Program-made: the position numbers and the translations under genes
In this document: positions 4,699 through 54,400 of the stretch, one piece after another
How the letters are laid out: every line of letters starts with the position of its first letter
How positions within the stretch are numbered: the stretch's first letter is position 1
NCBI GenBank assembly: GCA_000091205.1
Contig: AP006495.2
DNA from: Cyanidioschyzon merolae
Lineage: Eukaryota
Length of the DNA stretch: 64,000 nucleotides
Direction: 5' to 3' (one strand)
Notes under the pieces: generated by a model
Database searches by the model: none
What the model was told of the DNA's origin: nothing
What the model saw: only the letters and a program-made list of their open reading frames with translations

Positions 4699-6855
4699 AT
4701 GAAACCAGATCCTCAAAAAGCCTCCATAAAGCCAGATATACACGCTGGGCGTTATATAGGTGAAGAAGACTTGAGCGATGACGACGACTTTGAGCCAGTG
4801 CTCGAGTCCGGGAGCAGGACGCAGGACGGGACGCCTTACCGAGAGTATACCCTGCGCGTGCTGCCCTGGGTAGACTGGGATAAGCTGTTCACGGATACGC
4901 AGTCTGAACCCAGCGACAGTCTAGAGCTCTCGGACTCTTCACAATCTGGAGATGAAGACGAGCTCGGCAACGATAGCGGCGAAACGGCCGCTAGGAATAC
5001 AAAGGAAGCAGCGGAAGCAGAGTTTGTACGTCGTGAGTATATTCTCGCGCGCTTTCCAAACACGGACGGTTGCACAACCGACAAGCGCGAACAAACAACC
5101 GGTCTTCGCTTTGACCCGAGCACAAAGCTCCCAGTACCGAAACGCGGAGCAGTGCCGCGCTATCAGCCCGGTGGCTTTGCGCGACTTTGCCGCGAGGGCG
5201 AGGAGACCTTGCGTGAACGACTAGAGGCGTTGGAAGAGGCTCAGCGCGTGGATGCACAGCTCAAGGTTGGCAAAGCGCCCTGGTACAAACAACGGCGGGA
5301 TCTGGAGGGTATCGCTCGAATTCCGGAGCGTTATCGGAAACGACTCATCTTGGAGGTCGAGGAAACCTCTGAGCCTGCTCAGGGTGCCTCCGCGTCGGAG
5401 CCGAGCGCTGCCCACATGAGTGACGCGAAGAACGCTGGACGCCCCGAGGCGACTCGTACAGTTCGCGATGATCCCAAGGCGCCCAGTACAAAAAGACGGA
5501 AGGTCTTCTATGGTACCATGGATAGTGCGCTTGGGTCTGATTACTGTCTGATGATTGTTCGAGATGATCGTACCATCGATCTGGTGCCTGTTGGACGCTA
5601 CGCTTGGCATAATTTCAAGTTTGCGCCTAAGTTATCCGATATGGCGAATGAGCGCATGCATCGACGTGACGCTCGGCAGGCAGTGGACGCAACACGTCCA
5701 TCAGAGATGACCGTGGATCGCAGGGGATCGTCGCCTGTAATTGCGGATACGGGGGAGCAGGCAATCACCGTGAGTACTGAGGATGATCCGCTCGTCCACG
5801 TGGAACAGAAACTGAGAGCGCGCGCAGCCTTGGCGGATACCATTCTGGAACGCCGTCGGCATCTCGTGAATAGTTCGTCGCACGCGGCTAGTCTCTGGTC
5901 TGGCACCCAGTGGCAGCGCCCGTTCGTGCGTCGGACCGATGAGGGTGTGCATCCTCCACATGATTCGGAACCCGCTGTCAGTCAAGGGCAGTTAGACCCA
6001 TCTCTGCTGCTGTCGCGAAGAGAGATTGATTCGAGTGATGAATCAAACGCTGAGGATCGTTCTGGAGAAGATGACGTTGATGTCGTACGCGAAAACGGTC
6101 GACACACACCTGAGCGCTATCCAAATGCATCCGCTGATGATGCGTCGGTACTCGCGGCAGCGTTTCGGTATCGGGGGGGCCAGACGCCGTCGTGCTCGCA
6201 CTCGAATGCATCCGGTAGTGGCACCGAGTCGCAAAGTTCGCTTGAGCGTCTCGAGCGCTATCAGGCTGAGGATCCTCTGCGGCAGGGCAGCTTCTCTGAC
6301 GCTGGCGACGATACGGACATGCAGTGGAGGCATCGCTCGGGTCTGTCTGAAAACGGCCGGATGCTGAAACGCCTGCTCGAGAGGGAGAAAACTGCGCAGC
6401 CGCCAGCTGGAGTCGGATTCCGCTCAGAGATACCGCTAACGCGACCGTCTTCGCAGGCACCGTCAGATGCCGGAGCTACGGGCACCAGCGGATACGATTC
6501 TGCGCCCCGCTTCCAGGAACACGAGTCTATCGCGGGATCGGCTGGAGCCAAGTATCCCGGGAAGCCAGTCTCTGCAGGTGAACAGCACGCTGTGCCTTCG
6601 CATTTACTGCCGGCGCCGGATGGAGTTATCGAAGAAATGCATATCAAAGCCGTGTTGCGGTATCTCGCGAGGCAAGGTTCCTACGTTACTGTGAAGGAGC
6701 TCCTTTCTTATTTTCAACCATGGTTTCCAGCGCAAAAGGAGCGTGTTGCTGCTCTGGTTCGAAAAATGTGCACCGCACGCGAGATCCCACCTGGATCAGG
6801 TCGCATCTGTGTGTTGCTCAAGGAGCAGGTGCTGCAGCATGCCCCGGCGTCATGA
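4699..6855 (+). CDS. Transcription initiation factor IIF alpha subunit-like (RAP74/Tfg1-like): N-terminal domain, acidic/Ser-rich centre, C-terminal winged helix
   Basis: The C-terminus MHIKAVLRYLARQGSYVTVKELLSYFQ...VAALVRKM matches the RAP74 winged-helix consensus (VRRYLTRKPMTTKDLLKKFQ...). The N-terminal YAWHNFKFAPKL resembles the RAP74 VHNWYNFTPLA motif. The long acidic/Ser-rich middle is typical. Assignment is by eye; similarity is moderate. Confidence 0.5.
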   Translation: MKPDPQKASIKPDIHAGRYIGEEDLSDDDDFEPVLESGSRTQDGTPYREYTLRVLPWVDWDKLFTDTQSEPSDSLELSDSSQSGDEDELGNDSGETAARNTKEAAEAEFVRREYILARFPNTDGCTTDKREQTTGLRFDPSTKLPVPKRGAVPRYQPGGFARLCREGEETLRERLEALEEAQRVDAQLKVGKAPWYKQRRDLEGIARIPERYRKRLILEVEETSEPAQGASASEPSAAHMSDAKNAGRPEATRTVRDDPKAPSTKRRKVFYGTMDSALGSDYCLMIVRDDRTIDLVPVGRYAWHNFKFAPKLSDMANERMHRRDARQAVDATRPSEMTVDRRGSSPVIADTGEQAITVSTEDDPLVHVEQKLRARAALADTILERRRHLVNSSSHAASLWSGTQWQRPFVRRTDEGVHPPHDSEPAVSQGQLDPSLLLSRREIDSSDESNAEDRSGEDDVDVVRENGRHTPERYPNASADDASVLAAAFRYRGGQTPSCSHSNASGSGTESQSSLERLERYQAEDPLRQGSFSDAGDDTDMQWRHRSGLSENGRMLKRLLEREKTAQPPAGVGFRSEIPLTRPSSQAPSDAGATGTSGYDSAPRFQEHESIAGSAGAKYPGKPVSAGEQHAVPSHLLPAPDGVIEEMHIKAVLRYLARQGSYVTVKELLSYFQPWFPAQKERVAALVRKMCTAREIPPGSGRICVLLKEQVLQHAPAS

Positions 6856-8284: not shown

Positions 8285-8925
8285 CACAAACGAACCAGCA
8301 ACCAGCGACTCGATACCAATTTCGTTCCAGCTTCACGGTGAACATTGAACGGGGGCAAACGTCTCCGTATTTTCGAACGTTGATCCGCATGATGGAAGGT
8401 CGCACGACCCCGACGTGTCCGGCGGGCTCGTGCCTCACGCCTCCCTCAGTTACCGGGTGATGTGGCGACACCCGAGCGACTCATCTGCAACGATGTTTTT
8501 GTTTTTAGATGAGAAAGCGGTAGGCTGCATGCTAGGCGTTGCCCTGGTTGCAGTACGCTCCTGGCAGATCGCTTCGCGCTACCGCAAGCAGTGCGTCTCT
8601 CTCCGCAGCTTGCTGGCTCCCAGTATCATAAAGAGTCCCGATTCCGTATTGAATAAAAGACACTTCGAGCCAACGTCCTCAGTCGTATGCCAATCCCGTT
8701 CTATGCTCGTGCTGCACCCGCACCAGCTGTATAGGGGTTATTCAGGGGACAGCAAGGCAGGTACTCGCTGCGCGATAGAACGCACGAAACGACCAGTACA
8801 ACCTATATCACATATAGGTTATGGAACTTGAGCGTATGGCACAGCATGATGGACAATTCCATGAACCCTACTATCCATCCCGTGTCTGGGTTCCGTGGTC
8901 AATGGAAACATTTCGTCAAACATGA
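8285..8925. repeat. Dispersed ~640-bp repeat family B, copy 1
   Basis: Near-identical (>95%) to 49717..50360 and shows diverged similarity to 17990..18130. Conserved spurious ORFs (MSPHHPVTEGGVRHE...) appear in both copies. No recognisable coding domain, terminal inverted repeats or target-site duplication. Confidence 0.8.
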
Positions 8926-13049: not shown

Positions 13050-14864
13050 TTACAGGGGAATATTTCCATGTTTTTTCGGGGGCCATGGCTCCCGTAACGC
13101 CGCTGTCTCTTTGCTCGCTAGGAGGCTTAGCCCGTGTATGAGCCATCGACGCGTCAGTCTTGGTCGCACGACAGCATCGACGTAGCCACGCTGGAGTGCA
13201 ACCGAAACCGAGGATTCCTCGCTCGCTTCAGTGTCACCCGAAGTTTCGAGCGCATCCGTCGACGCAACTCGCCTGCGAAGGATCTGACTCGCTGCAGCCC
13301 TACCCATGACAGCGATATGGGCACAGGGCCAAGTTGCGTTCAGGTCGCCACGCAGGTGCTTGCTTGCCATGACACAGTACGCGCCACCGTATGCCTTACG
13401 CAAAATAATGGTCAGTTTCGGCACGGTTGCCTCCGTGTACGCATACAGCAACTTGGAGCCGTGTCGGATGATGCCGCCATGCTCTTGCTGCGTTCCGGGA
13501 AGGAAGCCTGGTACGTCAACCAGCGTCACGATCGGTATGCCGAATGCATCTGCAAAGCGCACAAACCGTGCTGCTTTGACGGCAGCGTCGGAATCGATTG
13601 CACCTGCTATGCACAGCGGTTGGTTGGCAATCAATGCCACACTGCGACCGTTCAGTCGAGCAAATGCAGTTAGCATGTTTGGAGCGAAATCGGTTTGAAT
13701 TTCTAGAAATTCTTCATCATCGACGAGGCGCATCAGAACATCCCGCATGTCGTATGGCGTATGCGCATCCGAGGGTACCAGTCGATCGAGCACGGGTTCT
13801 TCGCGGTCGCTGGGATCCTCGGTGACAACAACTTGGGGAGCGGGAACACGCGCATTCTGCGGCAGGTACGACAGCAGCTCACGGGCGAGTTGTATCACGG
13901 CAATATCGTCGTCGGCGTCTAAATGGGCAACGCCCGAGATACGACAGTGAACTGCGGCACCGCCAAGCGCCTCATCAGTTGTTTGTTCGCCTAGGGCAGC
14001 GTTCGTTACGCTGGGCCCCGTCACGAACATTCGTGCATGTCGTCTGCTCATGAGCACAAAGTCCGTGAGTGCTGGTGAGTACACTGCACCACCTGCACAC
14101 GGCCCGAGAATCAGGGAAAGCTGCGGGATGTATCCCGAAGCCAACACATTGCGTTTGAAGACCTCTGCGTAGCCTGCGAGCGAGCGCACCCCTTCCTGGA
14201 TGCGCGCTCCTCCGGAATCACAGAGAGCAACAACTGGCGCGCCGACCTCGATGGCCTTGTCGATGACCTTGCAGATCTTTGCGGCGTTGGCTTCGGAAAG
14301 AGAGCCACCAGCAACGGTGAAGTCCTGGCTGTAAACGAACACAGGTCGACCGTGAATCCGTCCAAAGCCCGACACAACGCCGTCGCCAGGAGTGCGATGT
14401 TTTCCAAGCGGATCCGAAGACGATGCATGGAGGGACTCTCTTGAACTGACCAGTCGATCAAGCTCTTGAAAAGAGCCACGATCCAGTAAAAGGTACAACC
14501 GCTCCCGAGCGGTTAGCTTTCCCTGGGCGTGCTGGCGGCGCACTCGAGCCCGGCCGCCTCCGCAAAGAGCGAACACTTCTTCCTGGTACGTCCGCTCGCC
14601 AACACCCAAGACAGACGCAAGTCCGCTCGCTACTATCTGGTCCGTGGCACCGGCTTCCGTCGAGGCAGAGTCCAGGTCCCTGTTCGTGGTTACGGAGCCG
14701 TTTACTGAACCACCCGTTCCAACGTCGTGCGGGTGTTCAGCGAAAGCGCCCCCGCCACCTGTACTGGACCTGGAGCACGCAGTGGACAGCCAAACGCGGA
14801 ACCGCTGTCGTACGGTTCTCCATGTGACGCTCTGCAGTCGCTGTGGCCAGGAGGTGTCTCGCAT
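13050..14864 (-). CDS. PCCB: Propionyl-CoA carboxylase beta chain (acyl-CoA carboxylase carboxyltransferase subunit), probably mitochondrial
   Basis: Near end-to-end similarity to PCCB. Matching stretches include QHAQGKLTARERLYLLLDRGSF, SQDFTVAGGSLSEANAAKICKV, SGGARIQEG, LGPCAGGAVYSPALTDF, FVRFADAFGIPIVTLVDVPGFLPGTQQEHGGIIRHGSKLLYAY, RKAYGGAY and the C-terminal KKHGNIPL. The start was placed at the first Met upstream of the conserved core (MRDTSWPQRL…, Arg/Ser-rich, consistent with a presequence). There is no stop codon between this Met and the upstream Fanzor-like ORF in the same frame. Confidence 0.85.
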   Translation of the reverse strand: MRDTSWPQRLQSVTWRTVRQRFRVWLSTACSRSSTGGGGAFAEHPHDVGTGGSVNGSVTTNRDLDSASTEAGATDQIVASGLASVLGVGERTYQEEVFALCGGGRARVRRQHAQGKLTARERLYLLLDRGSFQELDRLVSSRESLHASSSDPLGKHRTPGDGVVSGFGRIHGRPVFVYSQDFTVAGGSLSEANAAKICKVIDKAIEVGAPVVALCDSGGARIQEGVRSLAGYAEVFKRNVLASGYIPQLSLILGPCAGGAVYSPALTDFVLMSRRHARMFVTGPSVTNAALGEQTTDEALGGAAVHCRISGVAHLDADDDIAVIQLARELLSYLPQNARVPAPQVVVTEDPSDREEPVLDRLVPSDAHTPYDMRDVLMRLVDDEEFLEIQTDFAPNMLTAFARLNGRSVALIANQPLCIAGAIDSDAAVKAARFVRFADAFGIPIVTLVDVPGFLPGTQQEHGGIIRHGSKLLYAYTEATVPKLTIILRKAYGGAYCVMASKHLRGDLNATWPCAHIAVMGRAAASQILRRRVASTDALETSGDTEASEESSVSVALQRGYVDAVVRPRLTRRWLIHGLSLLASKETAALREPWPPKKHGNIPL

Positions 14865-16913
14865 GGCGCACACCGCTGAACGCCGTTCTAAAGTAGAACG
14901 TCGTCGGCGGTGTACAGTAGTAGCGACCGGTGCGCCTTGGACAACAAGTCGCCTACTGACGTGCAGACGCTTCCTAGGCTTTTTCGACCGGCCGCCTACT
15001 ACTGCTTCCAATTGTGTCTCATATAGTAAAACCTTAAGAGGTTGTCCAACAAAATTCTCTCGTGTCATCTCTGGAGGTCTGTTCTCCAACACCGCACATC
15101 TCCTTATATTGATGGCGGTAATAAAATCTCGGTTCACAAAATCCATCCGTTTCGTGCCGTTGGGAGTTGTACTTACTAATGCAAGCAGTCCACGAACTTT
15201 CGCTCTCCTTTCCATTTGCTCTTCCGTCAGCTGTCTATACTTTGCTATATCCTCAGGGCTCCTCTGGCACTTTTCCATCTCGACTCTCTGAAGTGTTAAC
15301 CCCTGTTCATGGTGTGTATACGATGTTCGAAACTCATCTACAGGTATCGTAACGAAACGCCTTGCACACTCCTTGTACATTCTTGTCGTTGGAGCTGGTG
15401 TAGTGCCTTTCTTGGGCACCCATCGTCCTGCTCCGTCCGCTACGACGAGCCTCTGACTTTCCTCCTCCTTCAGGGCGCTCAACTCATTCAAAAAATTCGC
15501 GAACGCCCGCTGCCTCCCACCGTATAGATTCATTCGCAGACGAGCCCACCGGGGCTTGGTATACTCCTCCCATAGCGCATCCCAGTGCGCCATGCGAACT
15601 TCCATGAATTTCCGGACAGCTTCAAAGTCCGCTCCTCGGCTCGTCACCTTACTCAAAGCTTCCAGGTGCTCTTTCATTCCTGGATTCCAAGTCTCGATTT
15701 TCTTCCTCGCATTCATGATTCCCGATTCTCGATAGTATATTGCTCTCGAGAACTTCAAAAGACGCATGTCTTTCTGACGCATGCCGCCGTCAGTGCCATC
15801 TTCCAAACGCTTGGGTACTGCGATGGTGATGATATTTGTGTTTCCGAGGTCCGCGCCAACGACAAAGTCGTTATCATGCACTTTCTGCGCGGCAGGATCC
15901 CCCTCCTTCTCATCTTTATGCATCGCCGCGCCAACGACAAAGTCGTTAGCTTGCACCTCCTGCACCACAGGATCCGCTTCCTTCCCATCTTCATCCTTCA
16001 TCACGTCAACGACAAGGTCGTTATCCTGCACCTCCTGCATCACAGCATCCGCCTCCTTCTTTTCTTCATGCTTCGTCACGGGCGCAGCCGAGGGCGGAAC
16101 TGGACGATCTTTCTTCAACCGCCGACAGAGTACACACGTGGCTACTCCATCGGTTTCGATCAACCCAGTGAATACCTTCTTCGTGCTCACTTTGAGACGT
16201 TTGAAATCGAAGCTGCTCATCCAGTACGTCTCCCGGTTTCCGCCGGTGAAGTCCTCCCTGCTTACATCGAACTCCGGACAGATATCCCTCATGATGCCGT
16301 AAAGGACGCCGGAGTCGATAGTCACAAAATGTGACTTGATCTTGCACATTGGAACCACGTTGAATCGCTTCCGCATTAGGACAGCCTTCCGTCTCTCCCA
16401 CTCTTCCTTTGTCTCTTCACTCAGCTTCATCTCCGCTTTGCGTTCGAGCTCTCGGTCCAGAAACACAAAATAGCGCAGGACGAGGCGATCGTATCTTTCC
16501 CTATCTTTTTTCAGCTCTGATATCTTGTCTGTTGGATTCGCCAGGCCCAGTATCGCACGATGCTCTTTAATAACCGCACGGATTACGGAATCCTCATTCA
16601 TGCTCTCGTTTGAAACCTTCTTCTCGACAAATTTGATCTCATCTTCATGCTTGCGATCTTTCATGATGCCATTGATAATCGCCCATTTTCCATTACGAGA
16701 GATGCCCGGGTATAGCGCAAACACTGCGCATATCATGAAACGTTCCAGGTTCATTGTAAAATGGTTCTTCACATTCGTGAGGTACTTCTTCGCCCCGAAG
16801 GTGTAAATATCCCAGTCAACCTTGTTTAGAGTACCCTCGAATCTGTAAAAGGGATGTTTTTCGTGGAGGGCGTGCACTCGCTCATCACTCGTCGAACATT
16901 TTTCCTGTGCCAT
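14865..16913 (-). CDS. TnpB/Fanzor-like RuvC-fold nuclease (eukaryotic homolog of the IS200/IS605 OrfB/TnpB RNA-guided nuclease), in frame with downstream PCCB
   Basis: The N-terminal ~660 aa of ORF 13050..16913 carry the three split-RuvC motifs in canonical order and spacing: Ruv[18 protein letters not shown]; Ruv[16 protein letters not shown]; Ruv[20 protein letters not shown] (the TnpB/Cas12 hallmark NxDxNAAxNI). The upstream region (…[29 protein letters not shown]…) resembles the TnpB WED/REC region. The CxxC…CxxC zinc finger normally found between RuvC-II and RuvC-III is absent. The segment is visibly AT-richer than flanking genes. Confidence 0.6.
15840..16080. repeat. Tandem repeat, ~76-bp unit x3, inside the Fanzor-like ORF (encodes three ~25-aa acidic repeats just before RuvC-I)
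   Basis: The DNA unit cgccgcgccaacgacaaagtcgtta… recurs at ~15851, ~15927 and ~16005. Protein repeats are [25 protein letters not shown] / [28 protein letters not shown] / [19 protein letters not shown]. Confidence 0.8.
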
Positions 16914-17989
16914 GCATGAAGTGGCGGTTGAATGTCTTGTTGAAAAATTCTCCCGGAACCTCGACTGTTTTGATGCCCATCACGTTGTCGTACATCTCCC
17001 ACGCCAAATGCATTATTCCTGAAGAAGCCTTTGTTATACTCATGGAGTAGCACGCGCCACGTTTTCTGATGGCCTCCCATGACTTTTGCTTGGAGGGATC
17101 CTTGAATTGGCGTAGAACAAATGCTTTCGCCACCATTTCTTCGTACTGTTGTCTTTCAAGTTGCATTTAGCGTCTGATTTCCAGTCTAAGGTCCCCCGTC
17201 TTTTCATGATTCTCTTGGCTTGGCGCTGTTTTTCTGGAAGCCGGCGACACTGGGCCTCCAGCATCGTCGACTTGCTTTGACATAACTTTTTTATTTTGTT
17301 CTGAAAAAGAACGCACTTTGAACGCCTCTCTTATAAAGTGCGAAAAAACACTCGAATACACTCACTTGAGCGTTGAAACCCCATTGAAATGAAAGACTGT
17401 CATATTGTGCGACTTCAGCACAGATCCAACCAGCACGTGAGACCCACACGTCAACGTATGGTCAGCATAGCGTTTCCATTCAACGCCGTGATACGCATTG
17501 TGTCGTGCATGCCAGATACGGAGCTGCGCGTATCGACCGCGCCATATAGAACAAACAACAGAAACTCACGACTACATACCAGTAAGATAACGATTTTTAC
17601 CCCCCCTCTGCAATGGACGTTAAAAGGGGGAGATGTTTCTATCATGTCGAATGTTTACCTCCTCGGCGGAAGGCCCCGCGAGCCCGACGAGTTTACCAGG
17701 CTCGTGCTTCATGCTCCCCCAGTGGCAGTTGCTATAATGAGACCCGAGCAACTCGTCCGCAATGTAATTTGTTCTTGGACTTGGATCGAGTAGCCTGCGT
17801 CTGGGCGTCGCGTTTGTCGTACTGGATTCCTCATATATCGCTTCACGCTTTTTGCAGGCAATTCCTTTGTCTCCACAAATTGCAGTCTCCCAGCATGATA
17901 ATGAATCCCGAACTCATGTCATTCGTAGCGTTCCTCGATCCGTCGCCCCCCCGTCGTATGGGAAATCCGTTCTTTCTCCATGATGCATC

Positions 17990-18130
17990 TGCACCAACGG
18001 TATAGCTGTTATTGCTGGTGCTCACGGCAGATAGTCGGCACACGATACAACGCACGAAACGACCAGTATATCCGAGAGGATATATAAGTAATGGAACTTG
18101 AAAGTAGGTTGCAGCAGCATTATGGACGCT
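17990..18130. repeat. Degenerate partial copy of repeat family B
   Basis: About 75% identity to the segment cagctgtataggggttattcagg…cgcacgaaacgaccagta…atggaacttga…atggac of copies at 8700-8860 and 50140-50300. Confidence 0.5.
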
Positions 18131-18146
18131 TTCCCGAAAACTAATC

Positions 18147-18277
18147 CCCATCCATCCATGCATCTATCTATCTACCTATCTATCTGTCTATCCATGCATG
18201 CATCTACCTATCTATCTGTCTATCCATGCATGCATCTATCTATCTATCTATCTATCTATCTGTCTATCTGTCCATCT
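18147..18277. repeat. (ATCT/ATCC/ATGC)n compound microsatellite
   Basis: Direct reading: ccatccatccatgcatctatctatctacctatctatctgtctatccatgcatgc… for ~130 bp. Confidence 0.9.
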
Positions 18278-29699: not shown

Positions 29700-30912
29700 C
29701 GGATTTCAATATACTGGTCTCTGTCTTCTCTCCAGCTCCGTTGGCTGTAGTCGAAGGATGTTGATTGCAGCGTCAAGATCCCTAGGTCGCAGTATTCTGC
29801 AGCTGTCGAAGAATTCCATAGACAGACGGTCGGCGCGATCGACGCTTCGCTGCACTTTTTTCATCTTCTTTGTACGTCCCTGAGGGGTGCATCCACCGCA
29901 GCCGTGACAATTGACCATCGCCAGGTGTTTCCGTAAGCCTGCGAAACCGAACGCGCTGGGCGCTGCCCTGTGTCGCGTCGAGATTTGCTTCATCGCTCCA
30001 TCCATGCCCTTGGCGGATCCGGAAGGCTCGCCTCAATACCCTCCTTTGCTTCCGCTTCCGATGCCGTAACCTTAAACCACGGGCTTTATCTGGGCGATCC
30101 CTCGGAGAAGAAGCCGTGCTCGGCGCATGCAAGCGAGCGCTATCCCACTCGGTGGTGACTCCATGGCGCGCAACGCCATCCATGATGGAATGAGCATCTG
30201 CAGGAATATCCAGGCTGGAAAAGCCGCCGGCAAGTCTCAGGTCGCCTACACTCCTTTGCGGCAAACCGGTGACGGTCGCTCCGCTGAAAGCGAGCCGGCG
30301 TGATGGCTGAGGCCCAAGCCGCTTCCCCGCAGAAGCAGACGATGCACGAGCCTCTGGAAGCATACCCCGTGTGCGGGATCATGCTGATGCCCATGCGGAT
30401 TCGTCGATGGCCCGAAAGCGAGGAGGAATTGTGTTTCGGGCAGAATCGTTTATTTGACGTCAGCTGCTCAGTGGATATGCGGGATGAGCTCGCGATCCAT
30501 TCGTCAAGAGACGACGTGGCGTTATTGGCTCGTAAATCCGGACGCGCCCACGAGTTTGCTTGCAACTGGATGATCGAAGCATCGGAGCGTGCTCCATTGG
30601 AGGAAAACGAGGGGATTGGAGGCTTCTCCATATGTACTGATGAATTAGCATCGGTTACGCTACGAGCCGTTGTTCGAGGCCGTCGCGAATGCTCTCCATT
30701 CCGCAAACGTAGCGAATTCTCGCGGCAAAGCGTCGCCCGAGCTACCCCCAGACGCACAACTGAGCACCCGAAAAGGACGGATGAAATCAAAAGTGCACAT
30801 TGCTGCACTTCGAATCTCGATGCTGGCATCTAAAAATCGCTCCGAAAAATCGAAAAGCAGGAATAGAGCAGGTACTGCAACGTTGCATTTTCATCTGGTA
30901 CTCGTGTAGAAA
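29700..30912. repeat. Dispersed/segmental repeat family A, copy 1 (~1.2 kb)
   Basis: About 98% identical, in direct orientation, to 43957..45169 (offset 14257 bp). Pairs of near-identical spurious ORFs (e.g. 29782..30363 vs 44039..44620) mark it. No recognisable protein domain. Boundaries were read from where flanks diverge. Confidence 0.85.
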
Positions 30913-38074: not shown

Positions 38075-41000
38075 CGCTCAGCTTGCCTTGGTGGAGCCCG
38101 GTTCCACTCCAGTCAGTTCGGCAGTGCTGGGCAGGGCTCAAAGCGCGTCTTGTGTTAGTGCTGCACTCGCCTCTGGTGACGCACGTCGCGAATACGTGGG
38201 AGCTACGTTCCCGACACTGCGGCCTGGAAGACCCAGAAATGAACGGATTCGCACGGCTGCGAGACACGATCTCGCTGTCGCCTGTTGTTAGGTTCCGGTT
38301 GGACGCTGAGCAGTGAATACTGGAACACACAGGTGCCAGCACGCCTTTTTTGCTTTCTTTCGTTTTCCTGGTAGGTATTCAACGAAAGGATGCGTCCTGG
38401 AGCATGGAGAAATGTTGTGCACAGACGGAATACTGCCACTGCTGGTATAGGGAACGGCGAGCTTTGTTGTGTGCAAGTCATTCTTTCTGGTGTCAGCAGG
38501 TGGATGAAGCACCCTTCTCGTAGTCTTTACTCGGAACCTTGTGTAACTAGAGAGAAATTCTCAGACTCTATCTACAAGACTGGCTCCTTTTCAAGCCGTT
38601 CCACTCTGTACGCTCTGTGGGATAGACGATCGAAGAATCCAGAGGGCAAGAAGTTTCTCTGCCGTTGCGAGCTGCGGTAATGAATGGACGAGGATAGACA
38701 CAGAAGGAAGCGCTCCGCTATGCGAGGACTTGTTCCGCTAAATACAACACACTCTCGATTTCGTAGTGAAACGCCTACGCTTTGTGCTGGAGCGATAGGT
38801 GTCCGTCTCACTTTATGAGACGTTATAGGGGAAAAATAGCAGACTTCTATAAGAGTACCCTGATAGGGGTAGATGGCTGTTTGTGGGGAACAAACAGGCG
38901 AGCGTAACGGCAACATCAGCCCTGTCGGCAACTCAATGACATGGTCGCCTGCGAACCGCCAAAAGGTCACGATCATTCAGCACCTCATGCTGCGGTGAAG
39001 ACCGTTGCAACCTCTTCCCATATTCTTCTATTCTCTTCTGAGGCAACATCGCATTCCATTCCTCAAAAGCGGTCAAGAAGCATGCAGTTGAGACTGGGGT
39101 TGCGCTGTTTATCGTGCAAGCGCGCGCTCTCTCTGGATGAATCCAGTCGATGGCGTCTCTTCCGTTGTCAATGTCTTTTTGAACGCGCACTTGTCTAGGA
39201 ACGAATCGCCCGCATCCGTGAAGCCGAGGCTCTACGAAAAGTCGCCCTCTACCGTTACCAGCCTTGAACTGCAGCGATTTTTCTCTGCTCGAGCGCAGGT
39301 TGGGGCGGAAATTCGCGCGTCCTTCCGTGGCGTGCTCGCTAAGGAGAAGGTGACGAAGACATCCCCGATAAATCGTAGGTCCCGGAATCGCATACGCACG
39401 ATTCAGTGCCATCGTCTACCCCGTGCGTCTCAGTCCTAGAGCGAAAACGGATATACAGTACAATGACTACACCAACGTCGCCCTGTCAAGTGAAGGAGCA
39501 ACGCGAGGAAACCACCAGACAAGAAATAGGGTGAGCTCCCCGAGGAGAGGGCGAGAAGCGGCAGAAAGGAGCAACTACCGAAGCAGAAGGATCCGTCAGC
39601 AACGGTTTTCAAGGTCTCCCTACGAAAACTTGTTCACGGGGATGAGCTTCCAAAAAGTGGGATGCAGGACGTCATGAACGGTCGCCTAGATTCCCTCGCC
39701 TCGACGCACCTTGGCAGGTAACTTTGCGTAAGATGTTTCAAGTCAGTTTGTCAGCTGTTAACATTGCTCCAGAATTTTCCGACCAAATATTTCTGATGCA
39801 GCATAAATGATACTCGAGACAGACTATGTATTGCGCCCTGAGCGTCGGATCAGAGACTTGTGTGCAAATGCTTCCCAGAATATCTCGACGAGTTGCCGCG
39901 TTACTCCGCGATCAGAGCATCCACAGCGTACGTACCGAAAACTATCAAACCAATCTCCTCGGAAACCGTACACGGGTCCGTGTCGAGCGCTCCATGAGGA
40001 GCACCCTTTGGATATTGTACCTTCACTGTTCTGGTCCAGAAAAGTAGAGCCTGATGAATGTTATGCTTCGTAGGTCGTGAGAGGTACATGACCAGCTCGC
40101 GGCCAGTTTGTAAGAAATGACGCAACGAGATCGACGCTCGCTGCTCATCCTCCCAAGGCCATGGTGTTTTCCTCGATTATGGACCAACAGACATCGCGTC
40201 CAAGTGATATCTGAAACGTGATGCATGCCTTGCTTGCAGTTTACACTTCGAACTCTTCGTGAACAGGGCCGTCCAGCGCAAATCACACTGGCTCCCGGAA
40301 TCTGGTCAAAGTCGCCGCCTAAAGCATCTGTTCGATGTAGTCCCCGTATCGTCAGATCCAGGTTCATGATATGACGATAGGCTGAATGGTTTACTGTTCG
40401 ACGTGGTCCCCCTAGTGAGCTGCGGCTGATCTCTGCGGACAGTAACGAGGCAGTCGAAAATTTTCACGAAAAGCATTCGCGATGCTCGTTCAAGGACTCT
40501 CGTTTACTGGGAGGATACGAAAAGGTTTACCGGTACAGCAGACATCGACGGTTCAGCAGTCTATGCGTACTTCGTGAAACGAGAACCTGGGCGGAGAAAC
40601 GAGACTTCGTCTCTAGCTTTCAAGGTAGAAGAAGGGAAAGACTTGTTAGTGAGCGTGGGTTTCGGGTTGAAGAACATCATAGCCGCCGCTGTCCCTGTAA
40701 CCACAGGGGATATAGCCAAGGACCTCAAAAGGAAAACACAGGCAACTGGTCATCTATTCGGGGGATCGGTATTATCGAGACTCGGGCATGGCAGACGCCA
40801 GGGCCCATCTCGGCGATCTGAGAACTGTATCCAGCAGATGCGAATGTTTTGTACGCTTCATCCAGAGAGCGTACACAGACGCCGAAATAGCTCATGCGGA
40901 CGGTCTTTGGCAAGCGTATATGAGACTGCACTCGGGTAGCTAACGATCTGCGTTCGACGGAGGCAAGAAGCGTGCATTTGCCAATCTGCTGGATGCATTG

Positions 41001-42765
41001 GAAAATTGGAACGAGCGCAAAGTCGTGTCGTTTGCCACTGATGGTAACCTATCCCAGTGGACGTGCTGAGGTGCGCGAATGCTGCACGCCGCTTCCTTCG
41101 ACGAGGGCGTACATGGAATGCAGGCATCGATCCTGCACGAATACCGTCGATTAGGTCAGGTCGAAATGAACGAATCACGAGCATGTGCGCATGCTGAAAC
41201 CAGCAGAGAAGAGGAGCGTGAAACACAGACCAGAGCATGAGATGGTATACGGCACCCAGACGGAACGTAAGATGATGAAGTAATCGAATGGAAGAGGCTT
41301 GCAGTAGTATGATCCCAATGGCTCATATGCCAGCAGGCGCTGTCGGCTTCGACATTTGAACGCCTCGATCAACATCCGGATATGTGTACTGGTTCTGGCC
41401 CGTCCACTGACTCTGTGTCAAATGAAGTGTCGATGTGATACTTTCGTATCCTGAATGGGCATTGTGCTGAAACGCATAAGACGTGCGATGAAATCAAGAC
41501 TAGGAGAGAGGGGCATCGGATTCTCGCCCCAACCAAAGCCGCTGGAATGGTGCAGTTCTGGAATCCAACGAGCCTGAAGCGTCGCATATGTGCACCGGCA
41601 ACTGTTGTCTTCGGTTCTGGTGAACAATAATGGTGTTGGGGTATTTGCTATCATTGAGTACACTGCCGAAATTGGTGTACAATGGTTGCAAACCAAGTTC
41701 ATGAACACTTGTAGATGCGTTTTAGTCGGTTGGCGGGCGTCAAATCATCGAGCTCAAGTCGATTTGCCAGTGACCGGAATAGACCGCGCCCGTACCCCGA
41801 CCCGGTGCAGAGCGTATGAACTTAGGTAGCCGCAACCGCAGCTGCACCTACCCCAGTCGCGGAGCGCTGTCGGAGACGTTTAGAGCACAGACGCTATCAA
41901 GCTTGCAGCCACATTCAGTACAAGAAGCGCGCCGCTTGTCGACACCGGGCCCACGTTCGACTGCGGCATATGCAATACAAGTTGTACTTCACGCTGATCG
42001 CACGCCCAACCGGGGGGAACTGTGGCGCCTCACGACCAGTGACGCACACCAGGATATCGAGAGGTGTACGTGTGTAGCCTCTTCTCTGGTCTATGCGGTA
42101 ACGCGGGACTATATATGGATATTGCGCCAGCGGCTTTGAGTTGCATTGCGGCATGGAATGCAGTGCGCGTTGGTGTCACCCCATGCTCACGGTAAGCCTG
42201 GAGCAGAGAGCACTCGGCTTGTAACCTCTGCAACACGAAACACTGTTTCTTCGATGGTCCTACGCGAATCCGAGCAACGCCCTGGTTCGCTTTCTGAACG
42301 CCAGCTGTGGCTCGCTGTCGCGGTTGTACCGCGGTCGGAGCGTATCCGTTTACGCATGAGCGCATGAGCCTGCGCATGCAGCGTTCTGCTCGGCCAGCAG
42401 TTCCATATGCAATTCCAAAGCGCATCCTTTTTGTATTTGCCGGGCGCATGGCATGCCTTTCGGCCGGTGTGGCACGGACGTGGTGAGCTCCCGGGTAGGA
42501 CGCATCAAACCTGCGAAATGACAACGTATTTGCATCTTTCTATGCAAGCGCACCTCATCCGGCACGACCGCCGCAGCACCTGCCACGGATCATGGCAACT
42601 TGTCCGGTGTACTGCAATCTCTATTCAACTGGCATTCGGCGGCTTCAACGGTAACGCATGTGAAGCATGCCCAACTATCTGCCGCATCACACCTTTGAGG
42701 CAAGACCGTTGTCGCGTTTTATCACCGATACCACGCATGCAAAGCGTATAAGGTCCGGTGTGTGC

Positions 42766-43956: not shown

Positions 43957-45169
43957 CGGATTTTAAGGTACTGGTCTCTGTCTTCTCTCCAGCTCCCTTG
44001 GCTGTAGTCGAAGGATGTTGATTGCAGCGTCAAGATCCCTAGGTCGCAGCATTCTGCAGCTGTCGAAGAAATCCATAGACAGACGGTCGGCGCGATCGAC
44101 GCTTCGCTGCACTTTTTTCATCTTCTTTGTACGTCCCTGAGGGGTGCATCCACCGCAGCCGTGACAATTGACCATCGCCAGGTGTTTCCATAAGCCTACG
44201 AAACCGAACGCGCTGGGCGCTGCCCTGTGTCGCGTCGAGATTTGCTTCATCGCTCCATCCACGCCCTTGGCGGATCCGGAAGGCTCGCCTCAATATCCTC
44301 CTTTGCTTCCGCTTCCGATGCCGTAACCTTAAACCACGGGCTTTATCTGGGCGATCCCTCGGAGAAGAAGCCGTGCTCGGCGCATGCAAGCGAGCGCTAT
44401 CCCACTCGGTGGTGACTCCATGGCGCGCAACGCCATCCATGATGGAATGAGCATCTGCAGGAAAATCCAGGCTGGAAAAGCCGCCGACAAGTCTCAGGTC
44501 GCCTACACTCCTTTGCGGCAAACCGGTGACGGTCGCTCCGCTGAAAGCGAGCCGGCGTGATGCCTGAGGCCCCAGCCGCCTCCCTGCAGAAGCAGACGAT
44601 ACACGAGCCTCTGGAAGCATACCCCGTGTGCGGGATCATGCTGATGTCCATGCGGATTCGTCGATGGCCCGAAAGCGAGGAGGAATTGTGTTTCGGGCAG
44701 AATCGTTTATTTGACGTCAGCTGCTCAGTGGATATGCGGGATGAGCTCGCGATCCATTCGTCAAGAGACGACGTGGCGTTATTGGCTCGTAAATCCGGAC
44801 GCGCCCACGAGTTTGCTTGCAACTGGATGATCGAAGCATCGGAGCGCGCTCCATTGGAGGAAAACGAGGGGATTGGAGGCTTCTCCACATGCACTGATGA
44901 ATTAGCATCGGTTACGCTACGAGCCGTTGTTCGAGGCCGTCGCGAATGCTCTCCGTTCCGCAAGCGTAGCGAATTCTCGCGGCAAAGCGTCGCCCGAGCT
45001 ACCCCCAGACATACAACTGAGCACCCGAAAAGGACGGATGAAATCAAAAGTGCACATTGCTGCACTTCGAATCTCGATGCTGGCATCTAAAAATCGCTCC
45101 GAAAAATCGAAAAGCAGGAATAGAGCAGGTACTGAAACGTTGCATTTTCATCTGGTACTCGTGCAGTCG
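43957..45169. repeat. Dispersed/segmental repeat family A, copy 2 (~1.2 kb)
   Basis: See copy 1 at 29700..30912. It lies in the intergenic space between the YqgF-like and asparagine synthetase genes. Confidence 0.85.
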
Positions 45170-49716: not shown

Positions 49717-50360
49717 CAAACAGAAACGAACCGGCAGCCAGCGACTCGATACCAATTTCGTTCCAGCTTCACGGTGAACATTGAACGGGGGCAAACGTCT
49801 CCGTATTTTCGAACGTTGATCCGCATGATGGAAGGTCGCACGACCCGGACGTGTCCGGCGCGCTCGTGCCTCACGCCTCCCTCAGTTACCGGGTGATGTG
49901 GCGACACCTGAGCGACTCATCTGCAACGATGTTTTTGTTTTTAGATGAGAAAGCGGTAGGCTGCATGCTAGGCGTTGCCCTGGTTGCAGTACGCTCCTAG
50001 CAGATCGCTTCGCGCTACCGCAAGCAGTGCGTCTCTCTCCGCAGCTTGCTGGCTCCCAGTATCATAAAGAGTCCCGATTCCGTATTGAATAAAAGACACT
50101 TCGAGCCAACGTCTTCTCAGTCGTATGCCAATCCCGTTCTATGCTCGTGCTGCACCCGCACCAGCTGTACAGGGTTTATTCAGGGGACAGCAAGGCAGGT
50201 ACTCGCTGCGCGATAGAACGCACGAAACGACCAGTACAACCTATATCACATATAGGTTATGGAACTTGAGCGTATGGCACAGCATGATGGACAATTCCAT
50301 GAACCCTACTATCCATTCCGTGTCTGGGTTCCGTGGTCAATGGAAACATTTCGTCAAACA
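49717..50360. repeat. Dispersed ~640-bp repeat family B, copy 2
   Basis: See copy 1 at 8285..8925. It sits immediately upstream of, and contributes the spurious 5' part of ORF 50125.. to, the SRP receptor beta gene. Confidence 0.8.
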
Positions 50361-51459: not shown

Positions 51460-54400
51460 CGGCACTCGATAACGACACCTGCGGCAAATGCACCCGAGAC
51501 CTCTAGCATGCGCCTGGGAGGCGTATTTGGCCACTTGTTTCGTAGAAGATGGAGACTGAAAATCTAATTGGAGATTCATCGAACAGGGATGGAAGCAAGT
51601 GTAGGCGTTTCGAGGACGCTAGCCTGTTGCGCACATCGATAGCGGTGGCACGAATGAGCGCTGCTCGGAAAGATGCTGCACGAGGCCTGCGTACTCCATG
51701 AGAATATGCATGTAGTAGTTTACATCGGAACCGTTTGGTTTGCTCCATGCCAGAGCTGCTTCTTGAAACAAACTGCATAGTCTAAGGCATGTATAACCGC
51801 TCCAAATGAAACTAGTGCATGATGTCTGGTATGCAAACGCCATTTTCTGCACATCTAACGGAAGCAACGGTGGAGGAATTGTTGGCAAGTTTCGCGCCTG
51901 TGAAGCTAAGCACGACGTGGCGGTCGGATACCTGTGAAAGTTGCGGGTTGCGCATCGTGACAATCGGCAATGCCAGCCGTTTCTACGGGCCAGTCGCATG
52001 TTCTCACTGGCTTCAGCGCTGCTGCAGTCAATGGGCGAACACGAGTCGACGACAACCATATCTGAGCAACGTGGACGCCGCCGCACAAGCTGAGTGCCAT
52101 GTCTTCTCGATTCTGGGCTCAACGGAGCGAACACGTTCCGCGACCATTACGTAAATGAATACCGACGTACAGACGCCTCCTGGCCTGTTTTGACCGGCTG
52201 ACTGCTATCGGTTTCAGTTTATACAGGCACACTTCGAGTCGGAGAGGCAACGCCGCAAAGTCGGCTTGCGTCAGCTCCGCGAGTTCCGTCTTCAGCACCA
52301 CATATCGTCTGCTATAGATGGCGGCGTTAAAGTCTCGGTTCACGAACTCCGTGCGTCAATTGTCGCTAGTTGAACTCACCAATGAAAGGATTCCTCGAAT
52401 TTGTGCCTCCTGTGCAACTACAGTTTCGTCGCGGTCCCGTAGGGCAAACGCTTTTTCTGGCCTGCCTCCCCTCGTCTTCTTCGTCACTCGCTCTTCATCG
52501 CTCCATGATTGGCGAAAAGGATATGTTTTTGATTTTTCTCCGGCAGCCGGCGGCACCGGCCCTCGAGGATCCCCGGATTCCGTGTCCATACCTTTTCCTT
52601 GGATTTTTTAAAATTGAAAATGAACGCACTTGTTTATGCCGTTAGTTAAGAACCCCCCAGCGTGGACAAGAACTTGCAGATGAAAGCGGTCATGTGCCCC
52701 GGTGTATCATCGTGTGCCGAACGCTTCAGCGATTCGCCCAGAGCAGTGATCATTCGTTTCAGGATAGAAAGCGCTCGTTCCATGGTGATGAATCCTGATG
52801 GCTATGGAGATACGATAAAAAGATCTATCCCGATAGGATCCGCAAAAGCTCGAATGCAAGGGGAATGGTGAAATACCGCGTTATCCAGTAGAGGGACGTC
52901 GCCAAGCGTCATGGAAAAGTCTTCAATGATTCGGCAGAGTGGTTGGTACTGTTGAATGAACCTCATGTAGGTGCAAAACTGAGGCCCCCAAATCAATCCA
53001 CTCCATCTAGAACAGATGATCTAGTCGTCCTCTTCGAGTTTGATCGTACATGCAACGGGCGCCCTGCACCGAGAATATCCACATACGCTCGGACCGTATC
53101 ATCCGAAGCACGTCTCATCGACTGAAAAAACAAACCAAAGTCCTTGTGCTTCGTGTTGATCGCTGAGTCCCAGGAACGCTGTCGTTCCGATTTCCGTGGA
53201 AGATGGCGTGCGCGAACTAGAACTTTAGCGACTGTATCGCAGCGGCTTCAGGATTCCACGAAAAAGCTGTTGAGAAACAGAGACGCCCATGCAGACTACC
53301 ATCTTCACCTTTGCCTCCCGTACAGTGTGATCAACGGGTCATTTTCTACCATTGAACGCAAACTGTCATTGAGAATACCGTGTTTTTGGTACAAAGCGCG
53401 CATACTTGTCTCTTTTAGGGCTCCTCAACCATTAGAGAACTCTGATATGACTGACATGCAAGAGGAATGCGGTCCTCCTTGCACCGTTCAGTAAAGAATT
53501 GATCCCACAGGCAATTCCTCTACGATCTATAAAATACATTGCATCGTGATCTCGATCTCATGCTTTATAATGCGAAAAAGCAATCGATTCCACGCTGCGG
53601 GAGTGGAACGGAATTGAGTTGAACGACTGCAATACATGCCATGCGATGTAAACCTGAAAGAGAAAACATCGCCTGTCTATGGTATATATAGAAGAACACA
53701 TATCCCAAGATATTTACAGGGAGCATGAAGCTTGGCAAGTCAAACACGAGCGCGCAGTCGCTACAGGCAGAGCGGACACGCGCACACATGCACCCGTCCG
53801 CCAGACGTGAGCTGTAGTTGCCGTCCCAGACGCTCTCTGGCCGCCTCTTACACGCACCTACAGTCTTGTTCGCTGCAAGGGAACTAGACGCGCTGCCAGC
53901 ACTACCGTAGAAGGCAGGATTCACCACCGCTTCACTTGGATGATGCGACGAAACGTCTCCACCGCGCGCCGTCACGCTTACGCAAGCTCCTGCTCAGCTG
54001 ACCCGGTTTCCTTGGTTCCGCCGGACGACCTCTTTCAGGCCTTCACGAAAGTCCTGCATCCACCTTGACCAGTGTACCGTTCTTTCTCGAACGCGCTCTA
54101 GGAGCTCCGTCGAAGTCTCCGCCCGGAGCGGCAGTGAGCGCGAACGTTCCGCCAGCTCTCGAAACGTGGTATGCGTCCGCAGCGCAAACCGCTGGAACAG
54201 CGCGCTATTTGCAAGGCCTTTGACCACGACTTCGTTCGCTAGCCAGTGGGCAATCCGTGCAATGATATCACCGCGCATCTGGCCCAGTGCTTTCCCTTCT
54301 GGTCAGTACGAGTCGTTTTTCGAACGGGACGCAGCACAGTACTGCACAACGCCAAGCATGCCACGCGTGTCGATTCGCTTCGGTGCGCGCACCATCGCAC

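Follow-up and report, generated by a model that had tools for sequence, protein, structure and literature searches.

Fanzor1 proteins are eukaryotic homologues of TnpB. Characterised members are omega-RNA-guided DNA endonucleases whose RuvC domain is split by a small zinc-ribbon domain, termed TNB or NUC. The stretch of DNA analysed here (the window) comprises 64,000 nucleotides of chromosome 13 of the red alga Cyanidioschyzon merolae 10D; four of its other open reading frames (ORFs), including CMM127C and CMM134C, correspond exactly to 10D proteins. On the minus strand lies an ORF of 1287 amino acids (13050..16913, starting at ATG 16913). It contains the linker quoted in an earlier reading of the bare sequence, which had described a Fanzor-like nuclease without a zinc finger between RuvC-II and RuvC-III and had proposed either a divergent, possibly unrecognised subfamily with a different structural brace or a domesticated or inactivated copy. 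The results described here make it very probable that the locus holds a dead copy of the Fanzor1 transposon CMe-1A, that the finger was lost long ago across a whole Fanzor1 clade in which the ribbon would persist free of metal, and that the fusion of the dead gene with the host gene PCCB is accidental.

The CMe-1A copy upstream of PCCB

CMe-1A was described as a Fanzor1 family of C. merolae with about 150 copies, a 3169-bp consensus without terminal inverted repeats and a 734-amino acid protein (Bao & Jurka 2013, PMC3627910). The Fanzor1-carrying element in the window occupies 14885..18160 on the minus strand. Terminal inverted repeats are missing, and at both ends the coverage by 71 related loci falls off steeply. 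Comparison with locus L001 by blastn agrees with the limits 14885 and 18160, and the repeat of about 3.3 kb fits the length of the published consensus. The main Fanzor1 frame (14943..16895, minus strand) corresponds in tblastn to residues 133-734 of the CMe-1 consensus at 74% identity, and the N-terminal 131 amino acids lie in another frame (16900..17283, minus strand; tblastn, 60% identity to consensus residues 1-131). The two have in common the host organism, the size of about 3.2 kb, the high copy number and the linker, including FVNRDFNAAINIRRC. The window gene is a decayed copy of CMe-1A, an element known since 2013. An (ATCT)n microsatellite with a 32-bp period (18162-18277) directly adjoins the 5' boundary of the element.

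Compared with published CMe-1, the window copy has an early stop, a deletion, a frameshift and a lost stop. The first two fall into the N-terminal fragment: its frame is interrupted by a stop codon at 17167-17169, and 8 bp of the family consensus are deleted near 17234. At 16895, an alignment of 33 non-redundant copies shows one inserted base pair, the +1 frameshift that parts this fragment from the main frame. The family stop codon TAG (14940..14942, minus strand) reads CAA when the consensus is set against the window sequence. The copy further carries the private substitutions DPG to DLG, AYG to ADG, C539L and NAAINI to ITAINI; the CMe-1 consensus and the intact protein P0001 keep DPG, the change of proline to leucine being private to the window copy. 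An environmental contig (L009), 91% identical and reaching the PCCB start, shows the same substitutions together with an extra stop, EFRT*, which indicates that the insertion is old and decays neutrally. The window copy is a dead pseudogene, and the reference annotation has no Fanzor gene at the locus. The suspicion of an inactivated copy was thus right, although this decay is unrelated to the loss of the finger, which is far older.

The C-terminal part of the ORF is a host gene outside the Fanzor gene. PCCB (13050..14864, minus strand; BAM80995.1) encodes the beta subunit of mitochondrial propionyl-CoA carboxylase. Its start codon is located at 14862-14864, and its 604 amino acids exactly match the annotated 10D protein, which begins at its own methionine. 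The sole Pfam domain of the 1287-residue ORF, Carboxyl_trans, covers residues 793-1270 (E = 2.8e-164). Because TAG has become CAA at 14940-14942, the relic reads in frame into PCCB. Only about 20 bp (about 14865-14885) separate the 3' end of the element from the start codon of PCCB downstream, and both have the same orientation, so that the transposon sits where the promoter and 5' untranslated region of PCCB should be. The same arrangement of transposon and PCCB is found in L009. Calls of the same PCCB gene in metagenomes of the Joint Genome Institute (JGI) are 680-875 amino acids long instead of 604, apparently the same chimera artefact: the lost stop codon yields chimeric 'PCCB' gene calls.

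Fanzor1 descent and the linker without a finger

Pfam scans of the ORF and its homologues found no TnpB or Fanzor domain, only weak traces of PF07282. Neither phmmer with the single protein nor a profile of nine sequences matched any PDB sequence, and AlphaFold gave a model too poor for use from the nine-sequence alignment (predicted local distance difference test, pLDDT, 52). A profile search of 1.84 billion representatives retrieved 4173 proteins at E <= 1e-3, 538 of them at E <= 1e-30, and more than 100 clusters at 50% identity carry ORFs of 560-720 amino acids. The alignment used below, A2, comprises 118 sequences: the window protein, three CMe-1 copies and 114 full-length representatives. 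When homologues were searched again with A2, nearly all matches were CMe-1 copies.

Compared with the PDB, the A2 profile matches all three solved Fanzor1 proteins: PpFz1 (9CF0, E = 1.1e-25), SpuFz1 (8GKH, E = 1.1e-21, over profile positions 36-610 of 649) and GtFz1 (9CER, E = 5.2e-16). An AlphaFold2 model built from A2 reaches a pLDDT of 83.3 and a predicted template modelling score of 0.81. In a Foldseek comparison with the PDB, its first seven matches are again SpuFz1, PpFz1 and GtFz1 (E from 2.5e-12 to 2.2e-8, template modelling score up to about 0.6, about 650 columns), Fanzor2 and Cas12 structures being far weaker matches. Homology to the three proteins extends over most of the length, at an identity of 14-16%. 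The order of REC, WED, RuvC and TNB domains, DPG, the shifted glutamate, the RGLL strand and the RuvC-III helix are shared; the solved proteins possess a CxxC…Cx4C zinc ribbon, whereas the window family has none of its four ligands. Activity and omega-RNA are known for the solved proteins, while the present family is known here from sequence and model. Its Fanzor1 ancestry is secure, and the label 'Fanzor-like' of the original prediction was well chosen.

The three catalytic residues are all present in the window copy. The RuvC-I motif (15840..15857, minus strand) reads GADLGN, with catalytic D355 encoded at 15849-15851 and DLG in place of the family DPG. The RuvC-II motif VDEFRTS (15321..15341, minus strand) contains the shifted glutamate typical of Fanzor, E527 (codon 15333-15335), and aligns with the catalytic glutamate motifs of PpFz1 and SpuFz1 (lidEFRTS and DEYKTS). 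In the RuvC-III motif (15105..15137, minus strand), catalytic D596 (codon 15126-15128) is kept and the following helix is present with the private changes N598I and A599T relative to the consensus NRDFNAAINI. The three motifs, first described as intact, are therefore intact in their catalytic residues, and two of them are altered around these. According to Yoon et al., Fanzor hallmarks are DPG at RuvC-I and a shifted RuvC-II glutamate that normally stands six residues before the finger, and 'many' TnpBs and Fanzors have the finger. The family shows DPG and the shifted glutamate followed by [TS][TS].

Between RuvC-II and RuvC-III no C4 zinc finger is found. The linker, residues 528-595 (68 residues; 15129..15332, minus strand, inside the interval 15080-15340 first pointed out), contains one cysteine, C549, and the histidine pair H534/H535, and no CxxC, just as had been read from the letters. 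It is the remnant of the TNB/NUC domain. The former ligand positions are occupied by H/Q/L/G in the window copy and by H/L/L/G or S in other CMe-1 copies. About 25 residues of the linker (15201..15275, minus strand) are an insertion specific to the CMe-1 lineage, absent from P0066-P0070 and most relatives, and modelled as short helices with a pLDDT of 63-70. Another part of the protein stands out by its composition: a 75-bp tandem repeat in three units (15854..16080, minus strand; tandem repeat finder) encodes acidic repeats of 25 amino acids, which form a loop after the WED strands and directly before RuvC-I. The loop is disordered (pLDDT below 50 at residues 271-338). The number of 75-bp units varies among copies, P0001 having more.

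Loss of the zinc finger in a Fanzor1 clade and rival explanations

In alignments based on hidden Markov models, the fingers of the solved Fanzor1s read FCPKC…RCKNMSC (PpFz1), VCPRC…GCTNPNC (SpuFz1) and ECPSC…RCTNDSC (GtFz1). At the four ligand columns of A2, cysteine occurs four times in 11 sequences, three times in 2, twice in 8, once in 69 and not at all in 28. About 106 of the 118 aligned relatives have no finger. The single retained cysteine is nearly always the third ligand, within RGLLWC; the first has turned into His, Tyr, Phe or Ser and the second into Asp or Thr, and the fourth position accepts any residue. In a neighbour-joining tree of the 118 sequences, those with four cysteines belong to one sister clade of 12 tips, and CMe-1 is nested among the finger-less sequences, adjoining P0072 and P0066. 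Closer to the window protein, the first 640 or so residues of the ORF have 70 protein homologues. Sixty-five, fragments or full-length proteins from JGI metagenomes, are 52-90% identical, and the remaining five, mostly full length, about 30%; the finger is absent from all 70. The absence is an old trait of the whole clade, neither a lesion of the window copy nor a sign of inactivation or domestication. The suggestion of a divergent subfamily therefore holds for the finger, though the family itself had already been recognised as CMe-1 (PMC3627910). The original prediction had named a finger-less linker common to many family members as an outcome that would speak against it, and this is what the alignment shows.

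The length of the linker changed little, from 43-70 residues in the four-cysteine group to a median of 46 in the rest, and a hydrophobic pattern, LLxxV…VRGLLW.ST…KFVNRD, is conserved. In the AlphaFold model the linker forms strands at residues 542-546, 571-582 and 588-594 (pLDDT 80-96) that run into the RuvC-III helix. The model suggests a ribbon that survives without metal, as a beta-sheet of three strands which the LLxxV, VRGLLW and KFV residues would brace. The following course of events can be proposed. The four zinc-binding cysteines (CxxC…Cx4C) were lost long ago in CMe-1 and a large Fanzor1 clade, most members keeping only the third and CMe-1 none, and linker length and hydrophobic pattern were retained. 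Hydrophobic and aromatic packing would replace His/Cys ligands in holding the sheet together, and active family members would, to judge from their sequences, still act as RuvC nucleases. The window copy decayed much later, its lost stop accidentally joining a dead Fanzor1 to PCCB about 20 bp beyond the element.

Losses of this kind have parallels. The Nuc domain of Cas12a is not known to contain zinc. Some large branches of prokaryotic TnpB have lost the finger, a loss implied for many Cas12s as well, and the function of the finger is unclear (Altae-Tran et al. 2023, PMC10691335). Branches such as clade RIIIr-4 (PMC10691335) and Cas12 types offer a precedent for loss by whole, seemingly catalytically competent lineages. 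These TnpBs are bacterial, archaeal or phage-borne and often have rearranged catalytic sites, whereas the present proteins are eukaryotic Fanzor1s with an ordinary Fanzor-type triad. Among eukaryotic elements, VCa-1 and VCa-2, Fanzor1s of the green alga Volvox carteri from the data set of PMC3627910, also lack CxxC pairs after E-[FY]-R, and VCa-2, whose sequence is partial, shares the clade signature AYS.VKFA..GPGE..VPT…VDEFR.

The original Fanzor motif was given as D-X-[TS][TS]-X-X-[C4 ZF]-X-RD, with a C4 finger called 'strictly conserved' (PMC3627910). A CCCC finger is common to SpuFz1 and ISDra2 TnpB (PMC10432273) and also occurs in ApmFz2 (PMC11832414). CMe-1, VCa-1 and VCa-2 stand without it in the very data set of the original definition, where its lack in CMe-1 went unremarked; in the alignment of Bao & Jurka, the two cysteines of CMe-1 are spread, with wide gaps, across the zinc-finger region (PMC3627910). 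Since the authors of the motif list CMe-1 as a Fanzor1, the motif is over-strict as a definition, and membership of the window family rests on descent, that is on homology and identity, not on the zinc finger. A finger-less Fanzor clade is not mentioned in the searchable Fanzor papers, and its clade-wide loss seems not to have been discussed in print.

The alternative that survives best, though an unlikely one, is that the finger-less proteins are nuclease-dead or domesticated derivatives, similar to TldRs and other inactivated TnpBs, in which the finger disappeared as part of the loss of cleavage. In solved Fanzor1s the TNB domain helps to position substrate DNA and stem-loop 1 of the omega-RNA (PMC11423790), and no omega-RNA signal was found at the element, both of which would fit a loss of cleavage. 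The active site argues otherwise. Across the 118 sequences the catalytic glutamate occurs in all, the RuvC-III aspartate in 115, and D355, P356 and G357 of RuvC-I are near-invariant. The median ratio of nonsynonymous to synonymous substitution rates (dN/dS) among 33 non-redundant CMe-1 copies is 0.25 for the RuvC half and 0.53 for the N-terminal half, as measured against the family consensus, a procedure that presupposes a star-like history and is open to bias; it was chosen over pairwise comparison of intact genes because only two of 72 loci have uninterrupted ORFs of at least 450 amino acids (exact long-ORF screen). From these values, much of the divergence of CMe-1 arose under purifying selection, and together with the near-invariant catalytic residues the dN/dS of about 0.25 indicates that the finger-less protein has been under selection, which acts on the RuvC half. 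Large branches of prokaryotic TnpBs, moreover, are documented to have lost the finger while their active site was kept or rearranged (PMC10691335). TldR-like proteins have lost catalytic residues and are single-copy host genes; here the residues are kept, and the genes are multi-copy, transposon-borne and decay like a transposon. Nothing supports the idea of domestication, the element being also unannotated in the reference.

Slightly less likely still is that the finger-less clade binds metal through substitute ligands: His at position 1, Asp at position 2 and Cys at position 3, or, within CMe-1, the cluster H534/H535/C539/C549. Individually such residues are frequent, with His at the first column in 42 of 118 sequences, Asp at the second in 49 and Cys at the third in 85, and the CMe-1 residues, in the motifs HHELGC and EKC, are each found in at least 80% of CMe-1 copies. 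They are not conserved together. The combination H-D-C occurs in only 8 of 118 sequences, and at least three C/H/D/E residues at the four positions in only 36, the 11 four-Cys sequences included; the first column is often Y, F or S and the second often T. P0072 and P0066, the nearest relatives of CMe-1, do not have its extra cysteines, the window copy itself has lost C539, and a recent common ancestor is enough to explain why the residues are conserved among CMe-1 copies. With no conserved His/Cys substitute site among the 118 sequences, a replacement site of His, Asp and Cys was rejected. The 'different structural brace' of the original prediction would then be found in the metal-free beta-sheet suggested by the model, and not in metal ligands.

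A genuine Fanzor-carboxyltransferase fusion protein, for which the uninterrupted frame from 16913 to 13050 could be taken, is very improbable. The frame is open only through the change of the family TAG to CAA; the annotated 604-residue PCCB starts at its own methionine, after a leader resembling a transit peptide; the Fanzor part is truncated N-terminally by the frameshift; in L009, the orthologous locus, that part is interrupted by a stop; and the exact 1287-residue sequence is found in no collection. We rejected a real fusion on these grounds: the in-frame joining of Fanzor and PCCB is accidental. The window copy is a pseudogene in which several substitutions, C539L among them, are private. 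Even so, a private loss of the finger can be dismissed, and with it CxxC pairs that are shifted or hidden in another frame: the linker is free of CxxC in the published consensus, in intact P0001 and in each of the 64 environmental CMe-1 copies, the relatives of about 30% identity have none either, and no frameshift falls inside the linker.

Some observations weigh against the picture of an old, clade-wide loss in proteins that remained functional without metal. Most sampled CMe-1 copies are dead, with a stop in the examined 128-residue segment in 37 of 64. The four conserved residues H534, H535, C539 and C549 of the close CMe-1 copies may form a lineage-specific metal site. The tree is a quick neighbour-joining one restricted to the best 118 sequences, and the bias of the consensus-based dN/dS has been mentioned. 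At the 3' end of the element, no omega-RNA signal emerged from synonymous sites (no excess conservation), from an alifold scan (no consensus structure or covariation), from Rfam (no match) or from z-scores of minimum free energy (no unusual folding energy), the copies being decayed and the methods insensitive.

Other copies, distribution and implications

With 71 related loci in metagenomes and three copies or relics in the window, the family is a multi-copy transposable element. The second relic (40716..41421, plus strand) is heavily decayed by stops and frameshifts, and the third (52164..52517, minus strand), which retains only the C-terminal part, is decayed as well and reads IRGILSLVSSTSDN*RTEFVNRDFNAAI; both were located by tblastn and have the same finger-less linker layout. 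About 20 of the 64 environmental copies share a stop at one place, RPPE*TR, where the consensus is RPPELTR and some copies have W; the loci are L005-L008, L026-L028, L034, L035, L041, L043, L044, L046, L050, L057, L064, L067 and L068. The shared stop points to the spread of a subfamily whose C-terminus had been shortened by the mutation.

Two further segments of the window, 8394-8880 and 49830-50292, resemble the 5' module of the element (17668-18153) at 66-67% identity. They are probably copies of TE-N2_CMe, a 635-bp element that shares the 5' end of CMe-1A (Bao & Jurka 2013, PMC3627910). A dispersed repeat unrelated to the Fanzor gene occurs at 30401-30735 and 44658-44992, which match the flank of L001 (12636-12996) at 73-75% identity.

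Finger-less relatives also occur on two IMG/VR contigs classed as viral, L073 (about 1700-2045) and L076 (about 5075-5375), with the pattern EFRTT…VRGLLWCDST…FVNRD. Among the five matches from the viral collection are also two contigs of giant-virus metagenome-assembled genomes, where the matching region leaves out the linker. Proteins of giant viruses resemble the family well in fold, and the finger-less clade may travel with giant viruses. No relative turned up when 185,579 prokaryotic genomes were scanned for a pattern, a limited test of restriction to eukaryotes and viruses.

We tentatively propose, as a possibility with nearly as much for it as against it, that a large and apparently eukaryote- and giant-virus-associated Fanzor1 clade has exchanged the C4 ribbon for a metal-free beta-sheet and still encodes RNA-guided nucleases. 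It would include at least about 100 clusters at 50% identity, among them CMe-1, VCa-1 and VCa-2. By homology, active members would have kept RuvC nuclease activity and RNA guidance and would do without the metal.

The locus itself is of little import, because its copy is dead and the transposon family has been in print since 2013. The clade-wide loss of the finger is of modest specialist interest. Finger-less Fanzor1s escape motif and Pfam screens that rely on the zinc ribbon (PF07282). The original definition of Fanzor and TnpB includes the C4 finger, and all solved Fanzors have it, but a whole, diverse Fanzor1 clade that has been under selection does without. That this clade stands beside a finger-bearing sister makes the role of the finger approachable by experiment. 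If the metal-free reading is true, the two clades would represent a natural experiment on the purpose of the zinc finger in TnpB and Fanzor, and the finger-less proteins would be a source of zinc-independent compact editors.

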